Shown here in pieces: positions 7,893 through 40,102 of a stretch of 64,000 nucleotides of DNA. The notes under the pieces were generated by a model that was not told the origin of the DNA, did no database searches, and saw only the letters and a list, made by a program, of their open reading frames with translations. Numbering within the stretch: position 1 is the stretch's first letter; the number at the start of each line of letters is the position of its first letter. Source of the stretch: Candidatus Eiseniibacteriota bacterium (GTDB lineage Bacteria > Eisenbacteria > RBG-16-71-46 > JABDJR01); the NCBI GenBank assembly GCA_963762255.1, contig CAVXKA010000002.1, positions 1,120,001 through 1,184,000 on the forward strand. Reading direction: 5' to 3'. The position numbers and the translations under genes were made by a program.

Positions 7893-8552
7893 CTACCTCC
7901 CCCGCTTCGCCCCTCTGACGAACGCCGCATAGAACACGAGGCACCCCAGCGCGAATCCTGCCACGTAGGGAACGATCGGGAACCCCGAAGCCGCTCCCCC
8001 TCCGGTCATCCGTGTCCCGGCGATAAGGAACGACGCCAGGAGCAGCCCGAACGACGCCAGCGCCCCCGCCCACAGCCACCAACGCATCCGCGGTCGCCCG
8101 CCGCAGTCGCTGAAGTGCATGATCCACGCACCCGCCACCACCAGGCTCAATGCGATCAGCACCGCCGTCCAGACCGGCCCAAGCCACGGCGACGGCAACA
8201 GGAAGAGCACGTCCCACGTGCCCAGGCTCTCCGGCCAGCCGATCGCGGCGCGAAGGCCGAGGTAGTAGACGATGTCCCACACGCCGAATACGACGCAGAA
8301 CGCGCCGAATCGCGCCCACGCGCGCCGTCGCGCCAGCATGGCCACGGTGAAGAGCATGAGGATCGTGGCCGCCTCGCGCGCCGTCTCCACACGCATGACA
8401 TGGTTCTCGGGGAGTACCAGGGGAAATAAGAAACCCCTGGGGAAGTAGAGCGCGCGTAGGTAGACCACGACCGCGGCTTCGACAATGCCGAATCCGATCC
8501 CGAAGAGGATCAGCCAACCGAGGTCGCGTCCGGTTCGGCGGGGGCTCGTCAT
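7893..8552 (-). CDS. Conserved hypothetical membrane protein
   Basis: EAAVVVYLR, REAATILML, WDIVYY, TWDVLFLLPSPW motifs; 5-6 TM segments. Confidence 0.75.
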   Translation of the reverse strand: MTSPRRTGRDLGWLILFGIGFGIVEAAVVVYLRALYFPRGFLFPLVLPENHVMRVETAREAATILMLFTVAMLARRRAWARFGAFCVVFGVWDIVYYLGLRAAIGWPESLGTWDVLFLLPSPWLGPVWTAVLIALSLVVAGAWIMHFSDCGGRPRMRWWLWAGALASFGLLLASFLIAGTRMTGGGAASGFPIVPYVAGFALGCLVFYAAFVRGAKRGR

Positions 8553-23942: not shown

Positions 23943-24334
23943 GATTTCTTCGGCCCCTGCGTCTTGAACATCTTGAGCATGCGTTCCGTGATCAGGAAGC
24001 CGCTGACGATGTTGGTCATCGACGCGAACAGCGCCACGCCGCCCATGATCGTGATGTAGGTGGGGTGCTTGGTGCCGGTGATGAGGATGGAGCCGATCAC
24101 CGCGATGGCGGAGATCGCGTTGGTGAGCGACATCAGCGGGGTGTGCAGGAGTCTCGAGACACGGGTGATCACCCCGAGGCCGATGAACGTCGACAGCATG
24201 AAGACGAACACCATGGTCATGAAGTCAAAACTGGACGCTGCGTGGCCGGCCTCGGCTGCTTCCGCGGCCAGAGCGGGTGAGGCCCACCCCGCTAGCAGCA
24301 GACCGCTCATCACGAGTCGGTTGGGCTGTTTCAT
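23939..24334 (-). CDS. pntA: NAD(P) transhydrogenase alpha subunit, membrane part (PntA2/PntAB)
   Basis: LHTPLMSLTNAISA, NIVSGFLITERMLKMF. Confidence 0.93.
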   Translation of the reverse strand: MKQPNRLVMSGLLLAGWASPALAAEAAEAGHAASSFDFMTMVFVFMLSTFIGLGVITRVSRLLHTPLMSLTNAISAIAVIGSILITGTKHPTYITIMGGVALFASMTNIVSGFLITERMLKMFKTQGPKKS

Positions 24335-24650
24335 ATCGCCTTTTTCCTCCCCTGGGTCTAACTAGAGACGGAAGTTTGTATCATCCCCCGCCCGATCTGC
24401 CAACCCATGAATTGACTTATCCATACAGGGTTCGAGGGGGGCGCTCAGGAGCGATTTCAGAGGTTTGCGGAGGCCGAGATTCGCGTCAAGTGGAGGGGCA
24501 TCTTCGTGCAGTGGGCACCGTTTGGTGGACACGAACCTACGACTCCCTGCCGGCGCTTCATTGGCTCTGACTGGTCGTTCACCCGGTCCGTGGGGCGCGG
24601 GGTAGTTTTCGAGTAGGCACAATCGTCTCCCGTGGGAGGCGTGAGGCTGC

Positions 24651-24794
24651 ACCCCAGTCCGGGCGGGTCTATATCCCTATGAAATCAATGGGTTTCGGCG
24701 GATCAGTGTTGCGGCCGAAATCGTCCCCAGGCGGCGATTGTGCCCACTCGAAGGGTGGTTTTCGAATGGGAATGAAACATACGTTGCCCCCCCT
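24651..24794. repeat. Structured non-coding repeat, copy A
   Basis: ACCCCAGTCCGGG..TGAAATCAATGGGTTTCGG..CGAAATCGTCCCCAGGCGGCGATTGTGCCCACTCGA..TTTTCGAATGG..CGTTGCCCCCCCT; colinear with 25584-25726. Confidence 0.9.
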
Positions 24795-24965
24795 GGGCGG
24801 TGACTGTCAGGCGGTAACCGTCCCTGCACAGATTGGGTAGCACAGACGGCCGCATGGGCGGGCCACCGCGCTACATCCGGCAGCGCCCCCCTGCTCGGCT
24901 ATCGGCGCGTCGTGCTCGGCGCGTACGCAATGAGCAATTGTCGGGCTCGGGCTTCGATGAAGCTG

Positions 24966-25397
24966 CTACGCGCGTGGCGGCGCGGGAACAAGGCCATAGC
25001 GCGCCATGACCGCGAGGAGCTGCGTGCGATCCGGCGGCCCGGGAGCATTGATAACGGCCGCCACATCCCTGAAATACTGCGCGCCGATGTCGGGCGTCAG
25101 TACGATGAGTGCACGAGCGGTCTCTTCATGGGGATTGCTGAACGCGTGCACCGCGCCTCTAGGAGTGTGCATCCAGTCACCCGGACTGAGATCCCGCATC
25201 ACATCGTTGACAGAGTAGCGTAGCACTCCGCCAAGGGCATAGATGCACTCCTCGTTGTACGAGTGGCTGTGGGGCGGTGGGACGTTCGATCCTGGCGGAA
25301 TCGTGAGTTCAAAGACGCCCATCCCGCCCTGACCTGCGCCATCGATCAAGTAGCTAACTTCGAGTTGACCGATCCTAATGGGTTCCGGTTGCGTCAT
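24966..25397 (-). CDS. Cupin domain protein
   Basis: PPPHSHSYNEECIYALGG and PGDWMHTPRGAVHAFSN cupin motifs; RBS GAGGA. Confidence 0.88.
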   Translation of the reverse strand: MTQPEPIRIGQLEVSYLIDGAGQGGMGVFELTIPPGSNVPPPHSHSYNEECIYALGGVLRYSVNDVMRDLSPGDWMHTPRGAVHAFSNPHEETARALIVLTPDIGAQYFRDVAAVINAPGPPDRTQLLAVMARYGLVPAPPRA

Positions 25398-25583
25398 TGT
25401 CTTATCCTCGGTGGACTTGTGGATGATTGAAACGGCGATCAACGTCACGCGGCTGAACCCCAAGCGTGCTGTCTACCCCCCAGAGATACGGACCATTCCT
25501 CGAAACAGGGGGCCGTCCCACCCTTGCGGGTCGGCAGTCCCCCGGAGCTCTATTCGCCACAAGGGGAGCGGGGGCAAGCTTCT

Positions 25584-25726
25584 ACCCCAGTCCGGGTGCC
25601 CCTATATGTGTTTGAAATCAATGGGTTTCGGGGATCACCGTTACGGTCGAAATCGTCCCCAGGCGGCGATTGTGCCCACTCGAGGGCCGGTTTTCGAATG
25701 GACATGAACTGTGCGTTGCCCCCCCT
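25584..25726. repeat. Structured non-coding repeat, copy B
   Basis: Direct repeat of 24651-24794, roughly 80-85% identical by eye. Confidence 0.9.
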
Positions 25727-25991
25727 CGACTCGCGGGGCTGCGCCTCGCGGTCAGACCGTCGAGCTCGGTCCGCAAGGGCGGTCCGTGGTCAAGAATGAA
25801 GGGATGCGAACTTACGACTCCCTGGACGCGGACAACTGGTGGCAATCACTAGGTATAGCGCCGACTGCGCGAGGAGAACCGGTGCCGGGGGACTGCTGAG
25901 CTTGTACACTAGAATCAACCCGGATCGCCCTAGCGTAGGATGTGGCTACCGATCGGCGCGGGCCGGCCGTCGGAGATGACGGGAGCGACGG

Positions 25992-26705
25992 ATGCTGAAG
26001 AGTGGAAGAGCAATAGTGGACGGCCACCAAGCGCGGAGAAGACTGCAGGGCAGGAGTGACTCGGCATCGCTATTCGCCGGTCCGCTACGCATGCTCCGCA
26101 TAGGCGCGTTTGCCCTCGCCGGACTGCTTCTCAGCCCCTCGACTTCATCCTGTTCGCCGCCCAAGGAAGTCCTGCCTGAAATCTCTCAGGGCCAAGCCCC
26201 CATCGCGTTTGCCGGCAAGGTGATTGACGTTGTGGATGTGGCTCCTACCGAGGCCAATCCCCGCGTACGTCCGTATTCGATCGCCACGGTCGCCGCACTG
26301 TCCAGAGCGGCTGGGGACATGCCCGACACACTCCACGTGCTTCAACGAAACGTTGTCTGGTGGAGTCGCGGCCGTCTCAAGGTTGTCGTACATGACGCTG
26401 ATTGCGTCCTCTTCGTCGGCGATCAGATTGCTGTCGTGGCCACTCCTTCCCCACCCGGCGAGCGTTTCCCATGGAACGCAGTCGGCCCAGTGTGGATTCC
26501 CGACTATCTTCGGATCATCCTGGAATCCGCCGATGACGCTGACCAAGGGTTGTACGGGGTCACCATCGGCCCAACTGGCGAGACTGAGCCGGGGCCGGAA
26601 GCGGTGGGCAGGCCGGTTAGGACATTCATTCAGCGCCACTACGAACCGGTCGGTATCTCCCTCTCCGAGTTCCTCCAATCCTGCGAGGCTCAATACTCGA
26701 GGTGA
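25992..26705 (+). CDS. Hypothetical exported protein (start uncertain, possibly 26091)
   Basis: 237-aa ORF with a signal-like hydrophobic stretch; no recognisable family. Confidence 0.45.
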   Translation: MLKSGRAIVDGHQARRRLQGRSDSASLFAGPLRMLRIGAFALAGLLLSPSTSSCSPPKEVLPEISQGQAPIAFAGKVIDVVDVAPTEANPRVRPYSIATVAALSRAAGDMPDTLHVLQRNVVWWSRGRLKVVVHDADCVLFVGDQIAVVATPSPPGERFPWNAVGPVWIPDYLRIILESADDADQGLYGVTIGPTGETEPGPEAVGRPVRTFIQRHYEPVGISLSEFLQSCEAQYSR

Positions 26706-26832
26706 GGCGTTGATCTGCTGCGGGGCGTGAAACTGACCCCAGACTTGGTCCGCTGGACCCGAATCTCCTGAGGGTAGTTCCCCTTGACCCCGTCGCGTCT
26801 CGGCTGCCCAATGGGGTCTGGAGGTTCACGCA

Positions 26833-27090
26833 ATGTCGCACCTATCGCCCCCGACGCTGACCCGCTCGGAACAGCAATCCCTGCTTGAGGTCTCGGCCTC
26901 GCACCCGCGGGACCACCTGGTGTTCAGCCTTGCGCTGGGAACCGGACTGAGATTGTCGGAGATCGTCGGCCTGAACGTGGGCGACGTGTTCACGCCGGAT
27001 GGCAGGCCACGTTCCCGCATCCGCCCCCGCCGCGAGATCGCCAAGGGCGGCCACGCCGGCGACGTGTTCCTGCCCCGACGCGCTGGGGCC
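26833..27090 (+). pseudogene. N-terminal fragment of small tyrosine recombinase
   Basis: MSHLSPPTLT...LALGTGLRLSEIVGLNVGD...IAKGG..GDVFLP; paralog of 28484-29067; homology ends after DALGPK. Confidence 0.88.
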
Positions 27091-27177
27091 GAAGCGCAAG
27101 ACTACCTGGTTACGCGACCCACACGACGTGAGCGAAGCGCATCTCCCATGCGGGGCCAGGGGTAAAGGGGTAAGGGG

Positions 27178-28299
27178 TCAAGGCGTAACGGTCCTGGCTA
27201 CACGGAACCCGAGGCTGTAGTAGCTGCTCGCCGGGTAGAAGGTGCCCCGGCCCGCGCACCGGAGGTAGTACGTGCCGGTGAGGTCCCACGAGCCGCCACG
27301 AAGCACCCGGTAGGTCTCGCTCACCGGGCCAGCCGGATCCACCGTCGGGCTCCCTTGACTCCCCGCCGGATACGTGGCGTACCAGTCCCAGCACCACTCC
27401 CACACGTTCCCATGCACGTCGTACAGCCCCCATGCGTTGGCTTGCTTCCCCTTCACGTCATGCGTCTGACTCCCCGAGTTGGCGAAGTACCACGCCGCCC
27501 GCGCCAGATCGCTCTCCGCCTCCCCCGACCAGTACCGCGTCGTCGTCCCCGCACGGCACGCGTACTCCCACTCCGACTCCGTAGGCAACCGGTACCCGTT
27601 CGCAGCCCGATTCCACGTCACCGTGCTCCCGCTCACCGTGTAGGCCCGCGTCAGCCCCGGCTCCCTGTCCGTCAGCGCGTTGCAGTAGTTCACCGCATCA
27701 AACCACGTCACCTGTTCCACCGGGCGCTGCGCCCCCTGGTGGTAGCTCGGGTTCGTCCCCATCACCGCTTGGTATTCCGCCTGCGTGACCTCCGCCTCCC
27801 CCAACAAGAGCGGCTTCGTGATCCTCACCCAATGCTGTGTCTCGTGGCTGTCTCCTCCCTCGCTCGTCGGGCTCCCCATCTGGAACATCCCAAGTTCTAT
27901 GCGGACGAATCCCAGCGGAACCGGGGCCACGATCGCCACCGTCGCCGTCCCGCTCTTAGTGGGATCCGCCTGACTCGTCGCCCGCACCGTCGCCGTGGCC
28001 GGATTCGGCACCGTCGCCGGGGCCGTGTAGAGTCCGGTGGGCATGATCGTCCCCCGATCTGCTTCATCCACCGACCACGCTACTCCAGTGTCTGGCGTCC
28101 CCGTCACCGTCGCCGTGAACTGCTGTGTCTGACCGACCTGCACGCTCACCGTCGCGGGCTCCACGCTCACCACCACGGGCTTGCTGGGGTCATCGCCGCC
28201 ACAACCCAACGACACCGTCAGCAGGGCGAGTGGGATGAGAAACCACCGGTGGAGAGTCGAACCGGGCAGAAGGCCCGAAAGAACCCGTGTGAGGCGCAT
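27178..28299 (-). CDS. Lipoprotein with Ig-like domain and FGE-sulfatase (CLec-fold) domain; DGR-target-like C-terminus
   Basis: Lipobox SLG-C; FQMGS, EVTQAEY, PVEQVTW, YRLPTESEWEYACRAG, NAWGLYDVHGNVWEW, RVLRGGSW...GFRVAR. Confidence 0.92.
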   Translation of the reverse strand: MRLTRVLSGLLPGSTLHRWFLIPLALLTVSLGCGGDDPSKPVVVSVEPATVSVQVGQTQQFTATVTGTPDTGVAWSVDEADRGTIMPTGLYTAPATVPNPATATVRATSQADPTKSGTATVAIVAPVPLGFVRIELGMFQMGSPTSEGGDSHETQHWVRITKPLLLGEAEVTQAEYQAVMGTNPSYHQGAQRPVEQVTWFDAVNYCNALTDREPGLTRAYTVSGSTVTWNRAANGYRLPTESEWEYACRAGTTTRYWSGEAESDLARAAWYFANSGSQTHDVKGKQANAWGLYDVHGNVWEWCWDWYATYPAGSQGSPTVDPAGPVSETYRVLRGGSWDLTGTYYLRCAGRGTFYPASSYYSLGFRVARTVTP

Positions 28300-28483
28300 C
28301 GCACACCACCTGTGGTTGAGGATTGCGGCCCTGACCTGTGGACAGCGGTCGTGAAGGATGCAGGGAAGTCGAACGTACTCCGCGAATCCCCCAGAATCAA
28401 GCAGGCAGGTGCTTCACTGGCGCTCGGTTCCCCTTGACCCCGTCCCGTCTCGGCTCCCCAATGTGGCCAGGAGGAACCGACCT

Positions 28484-29067
28484 ATGCCATACCTTTCGCC
28501 CCCCACGCTGACGCGGGCCGAGCAGGCGGCGCTGCTGCGCGTGTCAGGCGTTCAACCCCGCGACCAGGTGATCTTCTCCCTCGCATTGGGAACCGGACTT
28601 CGTTTGTCGGAAATCGTCGGCCTCAACGTGGGGGGCGCGTTCACAGCGGACGGCAAGCCGCGCAGTCGTATCAGGCTGAGGAAGGAGATCGCCAAGGGTG
28701 GCCGCGCCGGCGATGTGTTCCTGCCCGACGCGCTGGGGCCGAAGCTCGTGAGGTCCTGGCGGTACAAGGTGCGATCGGGCGAATCGCTGTCGCCGACCGC
28801 ACCGCTGTTCGCCAACCAGTCCGGCCACCGATCTCCAAACGCCGCGTCCAAATGGCATTCAAGACCTGGCAGCAGCGCGCGGGGTTCGACCGGATCTACG
28901 GGTTTCACGCATTGCGCCACAGCGCGGTCACGAATGTCCACCGTGCGTCGCGCGACCTCTTCCTGGCCCAAAGATTTGCAAGGCATGCCAGCCCCCTCAC
29001 CACCACCATCTACTCGCATGTATCAGATGAAGAGCTCTTCGACGGCATCCGAACCCTGAGCTGCTGA
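28484..29067 (+). pseudogene. Small (about 195 aa, catalytic-domain-only) tyrosine recombinase, 1-nt frameshift near 28830
   Basis: Catalytic R (GLRLSE), K (AKGG), HxxR (FHALRH), H (ARHAS), Y (TTIYSH) split over two frames; RBS GGAGG. Confidence 0.9.
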
Positions 29068-29292
29068 CCGACAGGAGGACGCAAGGGAGATTCAAGATCG
29101 ATCGTGTCCGCATTCGCAACTTTAGAATCCACCCTGCGTTCCGCGTCTTGGAGAATGGCCACGCATCGAAGTCCGTGGCGAGAGTGAAGTAATACGACTA
29201 AAATAGTTGCAGTCAACGCTCTCCACGGGGCAGCTCAGCGAGCGGAACCCCGTCTCTCGTGCAATCACCCAATGCGATCGGAGGGTCCGGCG

Positions 29293-29922
29293 ATGAGTTC
29301 TCTGCTACCGGCTTCCACCATCCAGCGCGTCGTTCGGCATTTCGGCGTAATGACCCTCGTTCTTCTCGGCACGATTGCCCTGCCCGTTGCGTCTGGAGCC
29401 CAGCCATGTCCCCTCCCACCGCAGTACACAAACAGCGCCAGCGTGATGGTAGGTGACCTTCGGTTCATCCTCGCCACGGAGACCTACCTGTACGCCGTCG
29501 GCGATCCGGTCAGCATCATCATGACCGTGGAGAACACCGGCTCCGGTTCAGTGACCATTCCGAATCCCTCGATGATCTCGCCGCTTCAGGCGCTATGGGT
29601 AGTTGCCGATACGTGCGCTACCTTTTACGTGGACGACTGCCCTTCCGTCTCGCCGTTCTATTGGCCTCAGAGCCACTACTACTTCGGGGTGTCGATCGTC
29701 CTCGCTCCCGGCGAATGCCGCACCTACACGCAGACCTGGAACGGTGTGCCATGGCAGGGCGGGACTGCACAGCCGGGTTTCTATGCCGTTCTTGGCGGCA
29801 TGAGCAGGGGGTCGACACTATTCATGCCCCAAGGCGGCGTCCGGCTCCCGATTCAGATCGGTGAACAGGGTGTACCTACGGACCAGCGCACTTGGGGAGC
29901 GATCAAGTCGCTGTACCGGTAG
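29293..29922 (+). CDS. Secreted Ig-like (BsuPI-like) protein with C-terminal TWGxIKxLY motif (start uncertain)
   Basis: Signal-like N-terminus, Y..GDPV..TVEN, LAPGE..TY...W, ends TWGAIKSLYR. Confidence 0.7.
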   Translation: MSSLLPASTIQRVVRHFGVMTLVLLGTIALPVASGAQPCPLPPQYTNSASVMVGDLRFILATETYLYAVGDPVSIIMTVENTGSGSVTIPNPSMISPLQALWVVADTCATFYVDDCPSVSPFYWPQSHYYFGVSIVLAPGECRTYTQTWNGVPWQGGTAQPGFYAVLGGMSRGSTLFMPQGGVRLPIQIGEQGVPTDQRTWGAIKSLYR

Positions 29923-29994
29923 CCAGTCTCGGCAGGACTGCGCATCGCGATCGCACCGTGCAGCGCAAGTTGGGCTATGCGCCGAAGGTCTGTC

Positions 29995-30100
29995 CGCGAC
30001 GTAGCGGTTCGCGAGGTACGCGTCGCCGTTGACTACGACCGTGTACACCCACGTCGGCGACGAAAAACTCATGCAGGGGATTCGCGGGCTGGGGTGCTTA
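29995..30100 (+). pseudogene. C-terminal fragment of the small tyrosine recombinase
   Basis: RFARYASPLTTTVYTHVGDEKLMQGIRGLGC. Confidence 0.85.
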
Positions 30101-30114
30101 GGGAGCAACCACAG

Positions 30115-30345
30115 TCAGCCCGATCCACCCAGGGTCCAGACCTCGCGTCCGCTCTTGAGGTGCTTCTTGTGGATACTCACGTCGTCGGCCCCCTCCGCCT
30201 CGGCAATCGAGCGGAGCTCGGCGATGTCCTCGGGACTGCCGTCGCAGAATCCCATCGGCCGCGGATTATTGGGCAGGTTGAGCTGGACTTTGAACTCGCC
30301 ACGGTCCCAGCGAGTCTGCGTGGCATTGTTGTAGGGGTGGATCAT
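30115..30345 (-). CDS. Small hypothetical protein
   Basis: 76-aa ORF MIHPYNNATQTRWDRG...GREVWTLG with protein-like composition. Confidence 0.6.
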   Translation of the reverse strand: MIHPYNNATQTRWDRGEFKVQLNLPNNPRPMGFCDGSPEDIAELRSIAEAEGADDVSIHKKHLKSGREVWTLGGSG

Positions 30346-30452
30346 GATGTTGCGGAGTCTAAGCGACCGCAGCTTCGAGAGCCAGACCTGAGCGTCGGGC
30401 ACCGCGATCGGGTGTATCCTGAGTCCCCACGCCCCTGAGGTCGGAGGTCGAC

Positions 30453-30617
30453 ATGTCCGTGTATGAGTTCACCTGCCAGGAATGCCGGAAGAAGTTTCAG
30501 GTCGTAAGGCCGATCACCGAGTACAACCCCAAGACCGTGCGCTGCCCGAAGTGTAGAAGCAAGAACGTGAAGCGGAGTTGGGGAGCAGTTCAGGTCCACA
30601 CTTCTAAGAAGAGCTGA
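30453..30617 (+). CDS. FmdB-family zinc-ribbon protein (54 aa, below ORF-track cutoff)
   Basis: Manual translation MSVYEFTCQECRKKF...RCPKCRSKNVKR; RBS GGAGG. Confidence 0.85.
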   Translation: MSVYEFTCQECRKKFQVVRPITEYNPKTVRCPKCRSKNVKRSWGAVQVHTSKKS

Positions 30618-30641
30618 GGGACGCTCCGTCTGTGGCTTGGC

Positions 30642-30725
30642 CTGTTCCTCGCCTAGCGATTCGCAAGGCACGCATCGCCGCTCGCCCCGACCGTGTACAC
30701 GAATCCCTCGGACGAAGAGCGGTTC
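30642..30725 (+). pseudogene. C-terminal fragment of the small tyrosine recombinase (internal stop)
   Basis: LFLA*RFARHASPLAPTVYTNPSDEERF. Confidence 0.8.
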
Positions 30726-31054
30726 GGGGGGACCCCTAAACGGACGTGCCAGCAAGTCGCCCACCCCGGACCGGACCGAGTATCCCGGCTTGAACCACGT
30801 GCCGAGTGCCTCAAGAAGATGGCTATTACCAGCAAAGCGCGCTAGTGTCCTTGACTGTATGGTGCGCTTGGTGCACATGGTGAAGTCTTCTCGAAGCGAT
30901 TCGGATCAGTCCAAACCCGCCTCCCGAACCCTCGCCTCGTCCCCAGTGTTTCCATGTTGACGAGGCTCATCGGTTCGTTGCTCGGATACTCCGGCCACGC
31001 CGATGGTCCGACTTTCGGCGGGCGATCTCGCACCGCACGTCTGGAGAAGTTCTA

Positions 31055-31327
31055 ATGACTAAGAAGATCTACGTGGGCAACCTGCCCTTCGACGCCACCG
31101 ACGACGCGGTTCGAGCGTTGTTTGCTCCTCACGGTGAGGTTACTTCCGTCAATCTCATCACGGACCGCGAAACGGGCCGGCCCCGTGGCTTCGGCTTCGT
31201 GGAGATGGAGAACGGCATCGCCGAGGCGATTCTTGCGCTCAACAACACCACCATGGGTCAACGCAACCTGACGGTCAACGAGGCTAAGCCTCGTGAGGAC
31301 CGGGGCGGCGGCGGCTCGCGCTGGTAG
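31055..31327 (+). CDS. RRM-domain RNA-binding protein
   Basis: RNP2 IYVGNL, RNP1 RGFGFVEM, Gly-rich tail. Confidence 0.95.
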   Translation: MTKKIYVGNLPFDATDDAVRALFAPHGEVTSVNLITDRETGRPRGFGFVEMENGIAEAILALNNTTMGQRNLTVNEAKPREDRGGGGSRW

Positions 31328-31333
31328 TTTCCA

Positions 31334-31370
31334 GGGCCCCCCGGTCACGAACCGGGGGGCCTGTCTTTTC
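31334..31370 (+). terminator. Rho-independent terminator
   Basis: GGCCCCCCGGT-CACGA-ACCGGGGGGCC followed by TGTCTTTTC. Confidence 0.8.
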
Positions 31371-31394
31371 CTCACAAGCACGCCCGTCAAGTAG

Positions 31395-31538
31395 GCGGTC
31401 ACTGCCGTTTATCGGATGTCCCGCGACATCTTCCTCGCGCAGCGCCTCTCGAGGCACGCATCGCCTCTGACGACCACCGTATACACCCACATCGGCGACG
31501 AAGAGCTCATGCAGGGCATCCGCACTTTGAACTGCTAG
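31395..31538 (+). pseudogene. C-terminal fragment of the small tyrosine recombinase
   Basis: AVTAVYRMSRDIFLAQRLSRHASPLTTTVYTHIGDEELMQGIRTLNC*. Confidence 0.88.
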
Positions 31539-31761
31539 CCGCCTACCGCCGGTGGTACGATTGATGGTCCTGAGTGGTGACGAGCTTCATTGCTGCCCAC
31601 CGATTCCCCCAGGTTGGGGCATCACTCGGGAACGCCGGGCCTAGCTCACGCGGGGCCCGTTCGTTTTGCCAGCGACTGGCTCACGGTGGAGAGATTCGGG
31701 AGGTTCGTTTAGCTGCCTGCTGTTCAGTTCAACACTGGACGGCTCATCCAAGGGCCACAGT

Positions 31762-32146: not shown

Positions 32147-32853
32147 CTAGATCGTGAAGACCTTGAGTACCTCGTCTCCGTAGTGGGTGATCACCTTGAT
32201 GGCGATCTTGCCGGTCTCAGGTGGGTCGAAGGGACGACTCACCCTGCTGTAGAGGGTTGACCACGCGCCTTCGTCGATCTCCGCGCGGAGGGCGCGCTTC
32301 AGCTTCTCGTACTGCTCATCGCCACCGGTGAAGTAGGCATGTCGTACGAAGAAGCTCTCGCCGTTGTAGTTCGTGTCGATGAACCAACAGGCCATGTCGT
32401 CGGTGGACGAACTGCGGATCTGTCCCGTGGTTGGGTCGTAGACATCTACGCCTCGGACCTCGATCTCGAGCTTCCCGTCCTTGGTCTTCCTGATGTCCAC
32501 ATCCGGCTCACCGAAGACCATGAATAGGTTGCCGGCACCGGTTTTCTTGAGCAGTTCGTCGCCCATCGCGAGGTCGGGGTTCATACGTGTCGCCAGGACG
32601 GTCAGCTTCCCGTAGCGGGTGGCCTCCTCGGAAACATGAGGGTCGAAGGTGAAGCCGCAGACGACCAGGATGTCGAAGCCGACGCCGAGGACCGCTTCCT
32701 TCGCAGCCTCTTTGACGAGCTGGGGGCCAACGGTCCCGTGCTCCGGGCCGATGACCACCGCGACCCGTTTCACCTTCTTGTCGGCGTCCGTGTACTCGCC
32801 AGCCCCCTGAATCCACTTCCCCGCGAAGGGTTCCAGCCGGTCAAAGGTCAGTC
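32147..32853 (-). pseudogene. C-terminal fragment of type III R-M Mod (DNA methyltransferase) subunit
   Basis: GPEHGTV, TGAGNLFMVFGEPDV, GVDVYDPTTG, WFIDTNYNGESFFVRHAYF, KIAIKVITHYGDEV; no catalytic DPPY region. Confidence 0.8.
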
Positions 32854-32996
32854 TGGGCGATCGGCATGAAGTAAGAGCTGACCCGGCGTGTCTCGTCGAT
32901 GTCGCGGGTGATCCCCTCCTGGCCGAAACGCCAGTGCCGAGTCGGCTCGCGGAAGGGCGAGTTCAGGATGGGGTTTTCAATGGTTACGTCGGCCAC
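32853..32996 (-). pseudogene. N-terminal fragment of type III R-M Res subunit
   Basis: Manual translation from GTG 32996: MADVTIENPILNSPFREPTRHWRFGQEGIT...RRVSSYFMPIAQ. Confidence 0.7.
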
Positions 32997-35313: not shown

Positions 35314-35699
35314 ATCACAGTGCCCTTGATCGTGAGGCATTCTAGGCGGAACTCAGGCTTCTTGAACAACAGATCGTCATTAGGTTCAAGGGCACCCGCC
35401 CCGCGATCGACAATGCGTCTCCGTGTCGACAGGCGACATGTGGCAATCCGGGGGGCAGCGGGGTCAGTCCTGGCCGTCCGGGACGCGGCAGGGGCCGCTA
35501 ATGGGCTTTTCAGGGACAGTTTTTGGCCTGATTCTTCGCCTCTGCCGAGGCTCCAGGTGAGGCCGAACACGCCTACGTATTGAAATGACTGTGGGTTACA
35601 GGATTGACCCCTCCGGCGCCTCGGGGTCCGACCCCCAAAACGATGCCCATTACAGGCCCTCTTCGGGGGGGCCATGCCCCAAAATCGCGCCCTCCCAGC

Positions 35700-36290
35700 G
35701 CAAACTCCTCACCGACCTCGCCGCCAAGCGCGGCTGGGACGCCATCCTTTACGACGAGGGCGGCGTCAGCGCCGAGACCATCGGCTCGCGCCCCGTCATG
35801 AAGCGGCTCCTCGATGATGTCGCCGACGGCCGCATCGACCTCGTTGCCGTCGTTGAGATGGAGCGGCTGTGCCGCGCCTCCGACCTCCGCGACTGGGCCA
35901 CCATCAGCACGACGTTCCGCGAGCCCGACCTTCGCGGCATCCTGTCGAAGCGCGAGAAGCAGAAGCTGCTCGAGCACACCCACCGCGGCCTGGAACAGGC
36001 CCGCGATGCCGGACGGTTCATCGGAGGTCAGCCGATGCTTGGCTACCGCTACGATCACGCCACCCACGGAGGTCCTGAAGGACCGCCACGCCCGCGCGAT
36101 GGAGACTGCCGGAAGCGTGGACGCGACCGCCGTCGAGATCGATCCACGCAAACGGACGCTGACCGTGGTCTGGCGGCTCGGCGGCGAGACACGGTACCGG
36201 GTGCCGCAGCTTCGCGGCGGGCAGGGGCGCAGCGTGGAGGCGTTCATGGTGCGGGTCGCGGCGGCGTCAAGGGAGTTCCGCGTACCGTAG
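35700..36290 (+). pseudogene. Large serine recombinase relic with internal deletions
   Basis: LYDEGGVSAETIGSRPVMKRLLDDV..GRIDLVAVVEMERLCR, RG...ARDAGRFIGGQPMLGYRYD; catalytic Y.R.S N-terminus missing. Confidence 0.78.
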
Positions 36291-36352
36291 CGGGAGAGCG
36301 CGTCGACATGCCCATCCCGCAGTACAGAGGAGGGCCGGGAAGGAGCATCGGC

Positions 36353-36450
36353 CGCTAACGTGCGCCATGTGGGGCACGCCGCCCGGCGTGGCCCGTACCC
36401 AGCACGGGACTTGACGCGCGTAGCCGTCCGCTCGACCGCACTATTGGGGT
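36353..36450 (-). repeat. Degenerate attC-like site
   Basis: Right after the stop of 36453-37205: CCCCAAT-AGTGC-GGTCGAGCGGACGGC...CAC-GTTAGCG; left core is AAT instead of AAC. Confidence 0.4.
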
Positions 36451-39811: not shown

Positions 39812-40027
39812 GTCGCTGCCTCCTGCTTGGACCATTGCGCATGGTGCCGCCTGACGCAAATTGCACTGCGAGCAACCCGATCACGACGCGGCCTGCCACG
39901 CAGTATTGACCCGTCGATGATGTCGGGGTTCGCGCCATGCCCGTAGGAACGGCTCAGTCGACCTTTTCAATTCCCGGGGCCTAGCCTGCGCATGCTGCGA
40001 GTCAATGCGGACGAAAGCGGTCTTGTT

Positions 40028-40102
40028 TCAGGGGGGGCAACGCTTGTGCCCACTCGAAGGGCGGTTTTCGACTGGGTAGGAAACATGCGTTGCCCCCCCT
40101 GA
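40028..40102. repeat. Structured repeat copy C with perfect 16-bp terminal inverted repeats
   Basis: TCAGGGGGGGCAACGC (40028-40043) and GCGTTGCCCCCCCTGA (40087-40102) enclose the TTGTGCCCACTCGAAGGG..TTTTCGA core shared with copies A and B. Confidence 0.88.

Follow-up and report, generated by a model that had tools for sequence, protein, structure and literature searches.

Recombinase-gene pieces and cargo at the locus

The window analyzed here, a stretch of 64,000 nucleotides from an uncultured soil bacterium, Candidatus Eiseniibacteriota bacterium (contig 2, positions 1,120,001-1,184,000, of a 4.14-Mb genome on three contigs), carries an array in which pieces of one tyrosine recombinase gene, which we call int, alternate with unrelated small genes. 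The pieces comprise a promoter-bearing 5' piece (intN), a near-full copy of the gene, which encodes 194 amino acids, three 3' pieces (intC 1 to intC 3) and a short sixth remnant, all of them co-oriented on the plus strand. The array lies close to the start of a 15.5-kb genomic island. A first-pass annotation, made from the letters of the sequence, had reported five co-oriented int pieces here, and this observation is real: all five were found where it had placed them, on the plus strand. The int-derived features are as follows.

26777..26824, plus strand: promoter box of intN, 48 nucleotides, with a TTGAC -35-like hexamer and GGAGG; 90% identical to 28427-28474
26833..27095, plus strand: intN, codons 1-87, then unrelated sequence; E 2.6e-36 against the near-full copy
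28427..28474, plus strand: promoter box of the near-full int, 90% identical to the intN box
28484..29067, plus strand: near-full int, 194 codons, with a 1-nucleotide frameshift at about 28830, near which the two frames meet
29985..30100, plus strand: intC 1, codons ~157-194, with TAG at codon 162 and TTA replacing the stop; per-genome E 2.9e-10
30641..30727, plus strand: intC 2, codons ~157-187, with TAG at codon 162; per-genome E 3.3e-8
31394..31538, plus strand: intC 3, codons 148-194 including the stop codon; per-genome E 2.5e-18
31539..31676, plus strand: conserved 138-nucleotide block after the int stop, with a GC hairpin and a T run (a terminator, as judged by eye), from an alignment of paralogues
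31681..31715 (about), plus strand: short decayed int remnant, codons ~157-167 only, from a three-way alignment; weak, ~60% identity over 35 nucleotides

Each intC had been described as starting 25-75 nucleotides past the preceding cargo gene and as spanning the catalytic His/Tyr region; measured from the stop codon the distances are 63, 24 and 67 nucleotides, and the translations of all three pieces cover His168 and Tyr177. intC 3 shares 87-90% identity with the tails of two further int copies in the same genome, and the 138-nucleotide block that follows the int stop is 90-94% identical in three paralogues, which exceeds the identity of the int gene itself. The sixth remnant occupies the place of a full intC in a second array elsewhere in the genome. 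Metagenomic contigs of relatives carry an extra C after 28830, and the frameshift in the near-full copy is therefore a loss of one nucleotide or an assembly error. We also observed that the Gln162 codon (CAG/CAA) is replaced by TAG in three intC pieces from two genomes (30002-30004, 30654-30656 and, at locus L098, ~2990), which may be a chance C>T change or may reflect selection against translating the scars.

The predicted enzyme, Int, matches PF00589 and no other Pfam family (70.6 bits against a cutoff of 27.1). Because the match fills residues 9-182 of 194, there is no room for an N-terminal DNA-binding domain. The form consisting of the catalytic domain only is thus the native enzyme, without a core-binding domain, and the first-pass annotation was right to note that the N-terminal binding domains of XerC and IntI are absent. 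Two intact 194-codon paralogues lie on contig 1, one of them at 467341-467925. The residues R40, K71, H142, R145, H168 and Y177 are all invariant in an alignment of 11 sequences; across 37 sequences the invariant set is H142, R145, H168 and Y177, with R40 conserved to at least 90% and K71 as the consensus residue. An AlphaFold model of Int (pLDDT 89.3, pTM 0.83) finds XerA (5hxy) as its best Foldseek match, with E 8e-10 and a TM-score on the query of 0.75, followed by the catalytic domains of XerH and VchIntIA and the core of lambda Int. Among the NCBIfam models, Int aligns to the C-terminal halves only of Xer and IntI proteins and scores well under their cutoffs, both for the Xer equivalogs (XerA, 72 bits against 220; XerC, 69 against 335; XerD, 51 against 330) and for IntI (TIGR02249, 47 against 265; NF011946, 22 against 435). 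We considered whether Int could be a Xer chromosome-dimer resolvase (XerC, XerD or XerA) and rejected this identity, as the scores are below the cutoffs, the alignments cover C-terminal halves only, and int is multi-copy and island-borne.

Nucleotide homology begins 55 nucleotides before the ATG in all int copies of the genome, and a box of the form TTGAC[TC] ... GGAGG precedes int genes in several phyla. The 48-nucleotide box was considered as an attachment (att) site and rejected, since it is a promoter-like box kept across phyla; homology that starts at a conserved promoter needs no recombination site. The word GTTCC is common to the box and to two places in the int gene, which is too short to carry weight, and the segment 27169-27190 resembles the box only weakly, in inverted form (77% of 22 nucleotides), with no counterpart at the paralogous locus.

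The cargo genes of the window are the following.

27178..28299, minus strand: FGE-sulfatase / Big_2 lipoprotein, convergent with intN; Pfam E 1.6e-46
29272..29922, plus strand: 216-amino-acid 'TWG' open reading frame (ORF) with a signal-like N-terminus; no family in the Pfam scan
30115..30402, minus strand: 95-amino-acid ORF without a Pfam family; 88% amino acid identity to the gene right after a full-length int in genome G006
30453..30617, plus strand: 54-amino-acid zinc ribbon protein, Zn_ribbon_8, FmdB type; Pfam E 5.8e-12
31055..31327, plus strand: 90-amino-acid RRM RNA-binding protein, RRM_1; Pfam E 2.4e-19

The earlier cargo list stands for the FGE, Zn_ribbon_8 (FmdB) and RRM_1 proteins, which Pfam identifies, and the 'TWG' and 95-amino-acid ORFs remain without a family. 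With the FGE gene and the 95-amino-acid gene on the minus strand, the orientation of the cargo is mixed. A paralogous module of minus-strand FGE gene, promoter and int lies on contig 1 at ~1.409 Mb, where it adjoins one of the intact copies (copy B) and has diverged from the window's series of intN, FGE gene, promoter and int. That part of the array is therefore old and does not record a local event.

Recurrence, polarity and joins

The arrangement is repeated within the genome. On contig 1, a second array shows the same order, with two intN pieces, a frameshifted near-full copy and then an intC. The 3' ends of the N-type pieces cluster: four of five, including that of the window's intN, fall within 8 nucleotides at gene nucleotides 253-262, and one N-type end in this genome and one in another (locus L139) stop at the same nucleotide. 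Smaller remnants were also observed. Two isolated 58-nucleotide int pieces (contig 1, 1410217-1410276, minus strand; contig 2, 1428117-1428169) correspond to gene nucleotides ~200-260, the region with the GCGGCCGC/CGCCGGCG palindromes; both are ~90% identical to whole genes and have the same two ends to a precision of a few bases, each directly adjoining the stop codon of a gene on the minus strand. At ~70921-71010 of contig 1, the last ~10 int codons directly follow the int promoter box, an almost complete internal deletion, and the fusion continues into sequence that is found 130 nucleotides downstream of the window's near-full int.

A scan of public genomes, one per species, yielded 77 int loci in Eisenbacteria, Acidobacteriota/Terriglobia, Nitrospirales, Thermoanaerobaculia and Gemmatimonadota and, more distantly, in Myxococcota and others; 18 of the 77 contain more than one int piece by tblastn. 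To count pieces downstream of int we used whole genes flanked by 3 kb or more, dropped L139, which overlaps another locus, kept the search-fetched loci of relatives (L046-L065, including genome G021) outside the count, and defined the close family by at least 55% identity. A co-oriented 3' (C-type) piece lies within 4 kb downstream of 11 of the 50 whole genes counted in this way, with 18 such pieces in total, and all belong to the close family (11/33, against 0/17 in the distant one). Within the same 4 kb downstream of the 50 genes, no N-type and no opposite-strand piece was found; the two other pieces are one internal and one weak. Upstream, none of 49 counted loci has an N-type piece within 4 kb, so that all 11 loci with C-type pieces are without one. 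The upstream int pieces that do occur are all of N type (W, A2 twice and IB, all in the window's own genome, and L097 and L139). No close tandem of whole int genes exists in the 77 loci, the nearest pairs being 6.2 and 7.2 kb apart. A downstream tally of 18 C-type pieces against no N-type and no opposite-strand pieces is not what unbiased decay predicts. The recurrence of tandems of int, cargo and intC with variable cargo, which the first-pass annotation had proposed as a test, was thus observed in Eisenbacteria, Acidobacteriota, Nitrospirales and Thermoanaerobaculia, with the cargo differing.

In 14 arrays, with cargo ORFs chosen by a rule of our own based on GC content at third codon positions, the cargo is heterogeneous and unrelated from array to array according to Pfam. 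It includes RRM proteins (in two phyla; an RRM gene is cargo in the Acidobacteriota array L071 too), an HSDR_N-type nuclease-like protein (in two Acidobacteriota), CPXCG, DUF4823, Lcl_C, serpin, Rieske and zinc ribbon proteins, and several ORFs without a family. None of 27 scanned proteins, ~20 of them array cassette cargo, has a recombinase domain, and tblastn gives int pieces only. The inserted units are 0.5-1.5 kb long and hold one or two genes, with a spacer of 130-330 nucleotides upstream of the cargo; the cargo lies on both strands, and int is co-oriented with the array.

The scars themselves look like coding sequence. In 23 C-type pieces, codon positions 1 and 2 are ~0.9-1.0 conserved, about as in 38 whole genes, and position 3 is free, indicating that most of the divergence of the scars arose while they were coding and that coding ended only recently. 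The last codon is kept in 21 of 22 aligned C-type pieces, and the stop in most. The junctions fall within the last ~80 nucleotides of the int frame, with no single core site found among them. For example, two int copies in G006, a genome of a different genus in the same family as that of the window, are ~100% identical over nucleotides 431-531 (and mostly 86-100% from about nucleotide 190), and are unrelated right after the Tyr177 codon. In G006, the tail of a whole int and the gene after it match the last ~25 nucleotides of intC 1 plus the 95-amino-acid gene at 84% identity; this module heads the row there, with a short int remnant behind it. The same module thus occurs in different settings.

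Metagenomic contigs of relatives, at 88-95% identity and used only where they cover the window, add further joins (at most 13% of the sampled words were found in any one run). A contig of runs X1 and X3 has the segments 30040-30394, 30396-30682 and 30762-31459 arranged in this order, without the TWG module. On its left lies sequence that matches the end of the terminator block, with a joint 31677>30040 and at most ~49 letters between, and to the right of 31459 follows an int tail of another type, which places both ends of the 30040-31459 block inside int sequence, near gene nucleotides 506-531. In these runs the block is flanked by an int 5' part and an int tail that differ from those in the window. 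In run X4, the contig with the TWG ORF and intC 1 diverges after 30102, and the contig with the 95-amino-acid gene diverges before 30111. Skip joints at 28947>31419, 29004>31478 and 28900>31526 were considered as excision products and rejected, since they are most simply whole paralogous genes that map onto two pieces.

Two further groups of loci deserve description. Genome G013 (L098-L108) carries eight whole int copies, which have ~1 kb of upstream sequence and a 2.4-kb downstream block in common; the block lies 0.1 to 4.7 kb past the int stop, so that a region of variable length lies exactly at the end of the gene. Two related genomes have int genes interrupted at the H-x-x-R-H codons by a different element (G038, L054 5446-8826; G021, L062 4801-4950, minus strand, and 8361-8510, plus strand). 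This element carries a second small recombinase, 25-28% identical to Int, and GGCATAA words recur at its ends; in G021 it lies between two int 3' ends that are inverted relative to each other.

The surrounding island and its border repeat

The island lies between pntAB on one side and an SDR/ychF pair on the other, and its GC content (0.58-0.63) is below that outside (~0.66). A repeat of ~190 nucleotides, located by blastn against the window's own genome, marks its borders.

24604..24798, plus strand: full copy of the ~190-nucleotide repeat, left border of the 15.5-kb low-GC island
25584..25726, plus strand: 5'-truncated copy, right three quarters
40041..40101, plus strand: 5'-truncated copy, right third, at the right border of the island

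Every copy terminates at the same G/ACGTTGCCCCCCC word. The repeat has a 28-bp internal stem, its copies all finish in ...CGTTGCCCCCCC, and an inverted partner lies at 40022-40047. Throughout the genome, full copies lie 1-4 kb upstream of each int locus and partial 3' copies at the right ends of islands, again by blastn. Scans for tRNA, tmRNA and Rfam families over the window and over 24300-26000 gave no match. The repeat is therefore not a known RNA gene; it may serve as the attachment target of the island or represent a small RNA gene that has not been described.

The island also includes a serine-type recombinase, a 257-amino-acid ORF at 35585-36355 on the plus strand with a Resolvase N-terminal domain (E 6e-11). 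Beyond the array, a Pfam-negative ORF at 32147-32773, conceivably a restriction/methylase remnant, and a short ORF upstream of it at 32841-32996, both on the minus strand, have 81% DNA identity to the same position downstream of the second array, and are therefore backbone, beyond int, that the two islands have in common.

Proposed gene capture within a recombinase gene, its rivals and its relatives

Given the anatomy of the array, its recurrence and polarity, the mosaic int genes and the presence of the same modules in different settings, we estimate a probability of about one half that the array is the trace of repeated gene capture, with the docking site inside the recombinase gene and entry by a single crossover in the int reading frame. 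A module, probably circular, would bring a partial int copy and one or two genes, and would join the chromosome by one reciprocal crossover within that frame. If the module carried a 3' part, the incoming tail would rebuild int, the cargo would come next, and the old tail would be displaced downstream as a 5'-truncated intC; a module with the promoter and a 5' part would act as the mirror image, leaving an intN scar upstream. Repeated entry would then generate any number of intN pieces, one whole gene, and any number of units of cargo and intC. The logic would be that of islands that integrate at the 3' end of tRNA genes and restore their target, except that the target would be the recombinase gene and the modules would be without an integrase of their own. 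Both the single crossover and the circular intermediate are inferred steps. Int itself would most likely be the catalyst, with an exchange zone that would extend from the His168 codon to the stop, around the Tyr177 codon; in its favor, the pattern is seen with a single recombinase family, and three of the junctions adjoin the Tyr177 codon. The first-pass annotation had proposed repeated integration at one hotspot, which the recurrence and polarity support in part, but the portion of the array from intN through the FGE gene to int is an old paralogous module with a second occurrence elsewhere in the genome. As a general cause, we rejected the nesting of whole int elements within int genes, since C-type pieces occur without an N-type piece upstream (0/49) and the ends are not complementary.

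Several observations weigh against capture by Int at a defined site. Most of the counted whole genes (39/50) carry no scar, and the pieces in G021 are more scrambled; in one case, a C-type piece is followed at 4.4 kb by one of N type. The breakpoints do not fall at one site: the 5' ends of the intC pieces spread over gene nucleotides 297-505 and give no single crossover point, and a breakpoint scan (eight informative related pairs from 70 tails, each giving an upper bound only) placed the breaks between related copies at -51, -51, -31, -19, -19, -13, +3 and +3 relative to the last codon, with both -51 pairs involving G006 and both -19 pairs G013. The match between intC 1 and G006 begins just ~25 nucleotides before the stop; were there a strict core site, tail and cargo would stay linked. 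The int genes of the window's genome are mosaic along their whole length, which general homologous recombination or gene conversion would produce likewise. The metagenomic contigs are short, and X1 and X3, possibly from one campaign, are perhaps not independent; no circle, empty site or excision product was seen in the contigs of relatives. Finally, the model leaves the origin of the module's partial int copy unexplained.

The scattered junctions and the mosaicism over whole genes speak for homologous recombination, or for an activity of relaxed specificity. RecA-dependent recombination between int paralogues would use the same single-crossover entry, with int serving as a portable patch of homology and Int having no direct role. 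It would account for mosaic breakpoints throughout the gene, for junctions that are dispersed over many positions, for the ~340-nucleotide tract at 86-100% identity in G006, which resembles gene conversion, and for the lack of a hairpin or clear dyad site in the int tails. We nevertheless consider it unlikely, because the present partners share only 65-85% identity and, in the exchange zone, identical stretches just a few bases long, and so make a poor RecA substrate, and because the arrays occur with one recombinase family only, in its close and not its distant members (11/33 against 0/17), with three independent junctions adjoining the Tyr177 codon. Ordinary decay, in which int islands accumulated in tandem at one hotspot and deletions left random pieces, fits a low-GC island with other debris. 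It also fits the fusion of box and int elsewhere in the genome, the isolated 58-nucleotide pieces, the frameshifted int, the scrambled G021 loci in a relative and the variable 5' ends of the intC pieces. Yet unbiased deletion predicts both kinds of piece, where 18 are of C type and none is of N type or inverted downstream in 50 loci; no undeleted close tandem pair remains in 77 loci, and the scars are undegraded; the N-type ends cluster within a few bases; and copies of the border repeat are absent between the int pieces, by blastn against the window's own genome. Unbiased decay of tandem islands is disfavored by the polarity, by the absence of whole int genes in close tandem, by scars that are still fresh and by modules common to several settings, and we regard this explanation as unlikely.

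It is also conceivable, although in our judgment distinctly improbable, that another enzyme targets int, either an integrase on the incoming DNA or one encoded elsewhere (the resolvase-like gene of the island, or larger integrases in the genome), with int as a passive landing site. The element with the second recombinase, inserted at the H-x-x-R-H codons in two related genomes, indicates that int genes are targets of other elements, and the resolvase-domain ORF at 35585-36355 offers a candidate enzyme within the island. However, in the 14 arrays that we examined, the cassettes that separate int from intC encode no recombinase, and the element with the second recombinase leaves complementary halves, unlike these arrays.

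Capture within int, as proposed here, resembles several known systems in part. As in integrons, a tyrosine recombinase heads a row of unrelated small genes separated by a recurring spacer element of ~90-150 nucleotides, and the same cargo is found at different array positions in different genomes. In contrast to integrons, the enzyme lacks both an IntI signature and an N-terminal domain, the spacers consist of int fragments and are not imperfect palindromes, int is co-oriented with the array, and the cargo has its own promoters and lies in either orientation. In a generic folding analysis (with no integron-specific attC model), all eight int tails and intC pieces folded no better than shuffled sequences (z -0.27 to +1.30). 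The IntI models score below cutoff, there is no attC-like fold and no divergent layout with a common promoter; we therefore rejected an identity as integron. Of the integron-like platform without IntI that was suggested earlier, the absence of an IntI signature and the recurrence of the cargo array hold, but intC is not attC-like.

FimB/FimE-type enzymes are site-specific tyrosine recombinases of ~200 amino acids with little or no core-binding domain, and invert a short promoter segment between inverted repeats, whereas no opposite-strand int pieces occur here. The rAID-1 arrays of Bacteroidales have a non-IntI tyrosine recombinase beside small acquired genes, but this enzyme is of a different family and has extra N-terminal modules; to our knowledge, the rAID-1 spacers are not copies of the recombinase gene.

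A closer parallel in anatomy is provided by islands that enter the 3' end of tRNA, tmRNA or protein genes and regenerate the target, as listed in Islander (PMC4383910). In both cases, a whole target is followed by co-oriented, 5'-truncated fragments, one per unit, the duplicated 3' part is of variable extent, and growth in tandem occurs at one site. Here, though, the target would be the recombinase gene, the units of 0.5-1.5 kb are without an integrase, and a mirror process seemingly acts on the 5' part. The displaced 3' fragments that characterize tRNA-type islands are found past the 50 genes (18 C-type pieces, no N-type, none inverted), but these cassettes, unlike such islands, do not each carry their own integrase.

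The SSV-type enzymes of SSV1, pTN3 and pT26-2 form the other comparison, for which we draw on a review (PMC8371274). According to this review, their integration splits int into complementary halves at the ends of the element, the integrases (Pfam family PF16795) whose target lies inside their own gene are known only in archaea, and the pTN3 enzyme can also recombine any homologous stretch (PMC8371274). The systems would be alike in that the target lies in the int frame and in that exchange between related copies produces Int(N)/Int(C) chimeras, and the activity of pTN3 on homologous stretches is a possible model for the scattered junctions seen here. They differ in that the gene here would be rebuilt, with only the displaced end staying behind, and in that Int matches PF00589 only, as opposed to PF16795. 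The analogy to SSV1 and pTN3 drawn in the first-pass annotation fails at its defining point: intN ends at codon 87, intC starts at codon 148 or later, and no complementary halves flank an element. A search of the literature, mostly at the level of abstracts, found no description of arrays of int fragments and cargo or of the 194-amino-acid family.

More tentatively, the family may be a bacterial, non-suicidal counterpart of the archaeal integrases, with a docking site in its own last ~30 codons, around the codon of the catalytic tyrosine, and may run a cassette platform independent of IntI and of hairpins across Eisenbacteria, Acidobacteriota and neighboring phyla, in which each capture swaps the C-terminal tail. 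If capture within int is correct, site-specific gene capture would not be confined to integrons, and could be carried out by a much smaller enzyme that uses its own coding sequence as a landing pad. Enzyme and site would be tied together in ~640 bp, with the gene rebuilt at each event. An att site inside the integrase gene, held to be exclusive to archaea in the review (PMC8371274), would then extend to bacteria, without destruction of the gene. A 194-amino-acid recombinase with a site of ~100 nucleotides would, if active, be an attractive tool. In uncultured soil and sediment phyla, displaced int ends would offer a simple mark of recently acquired genes.

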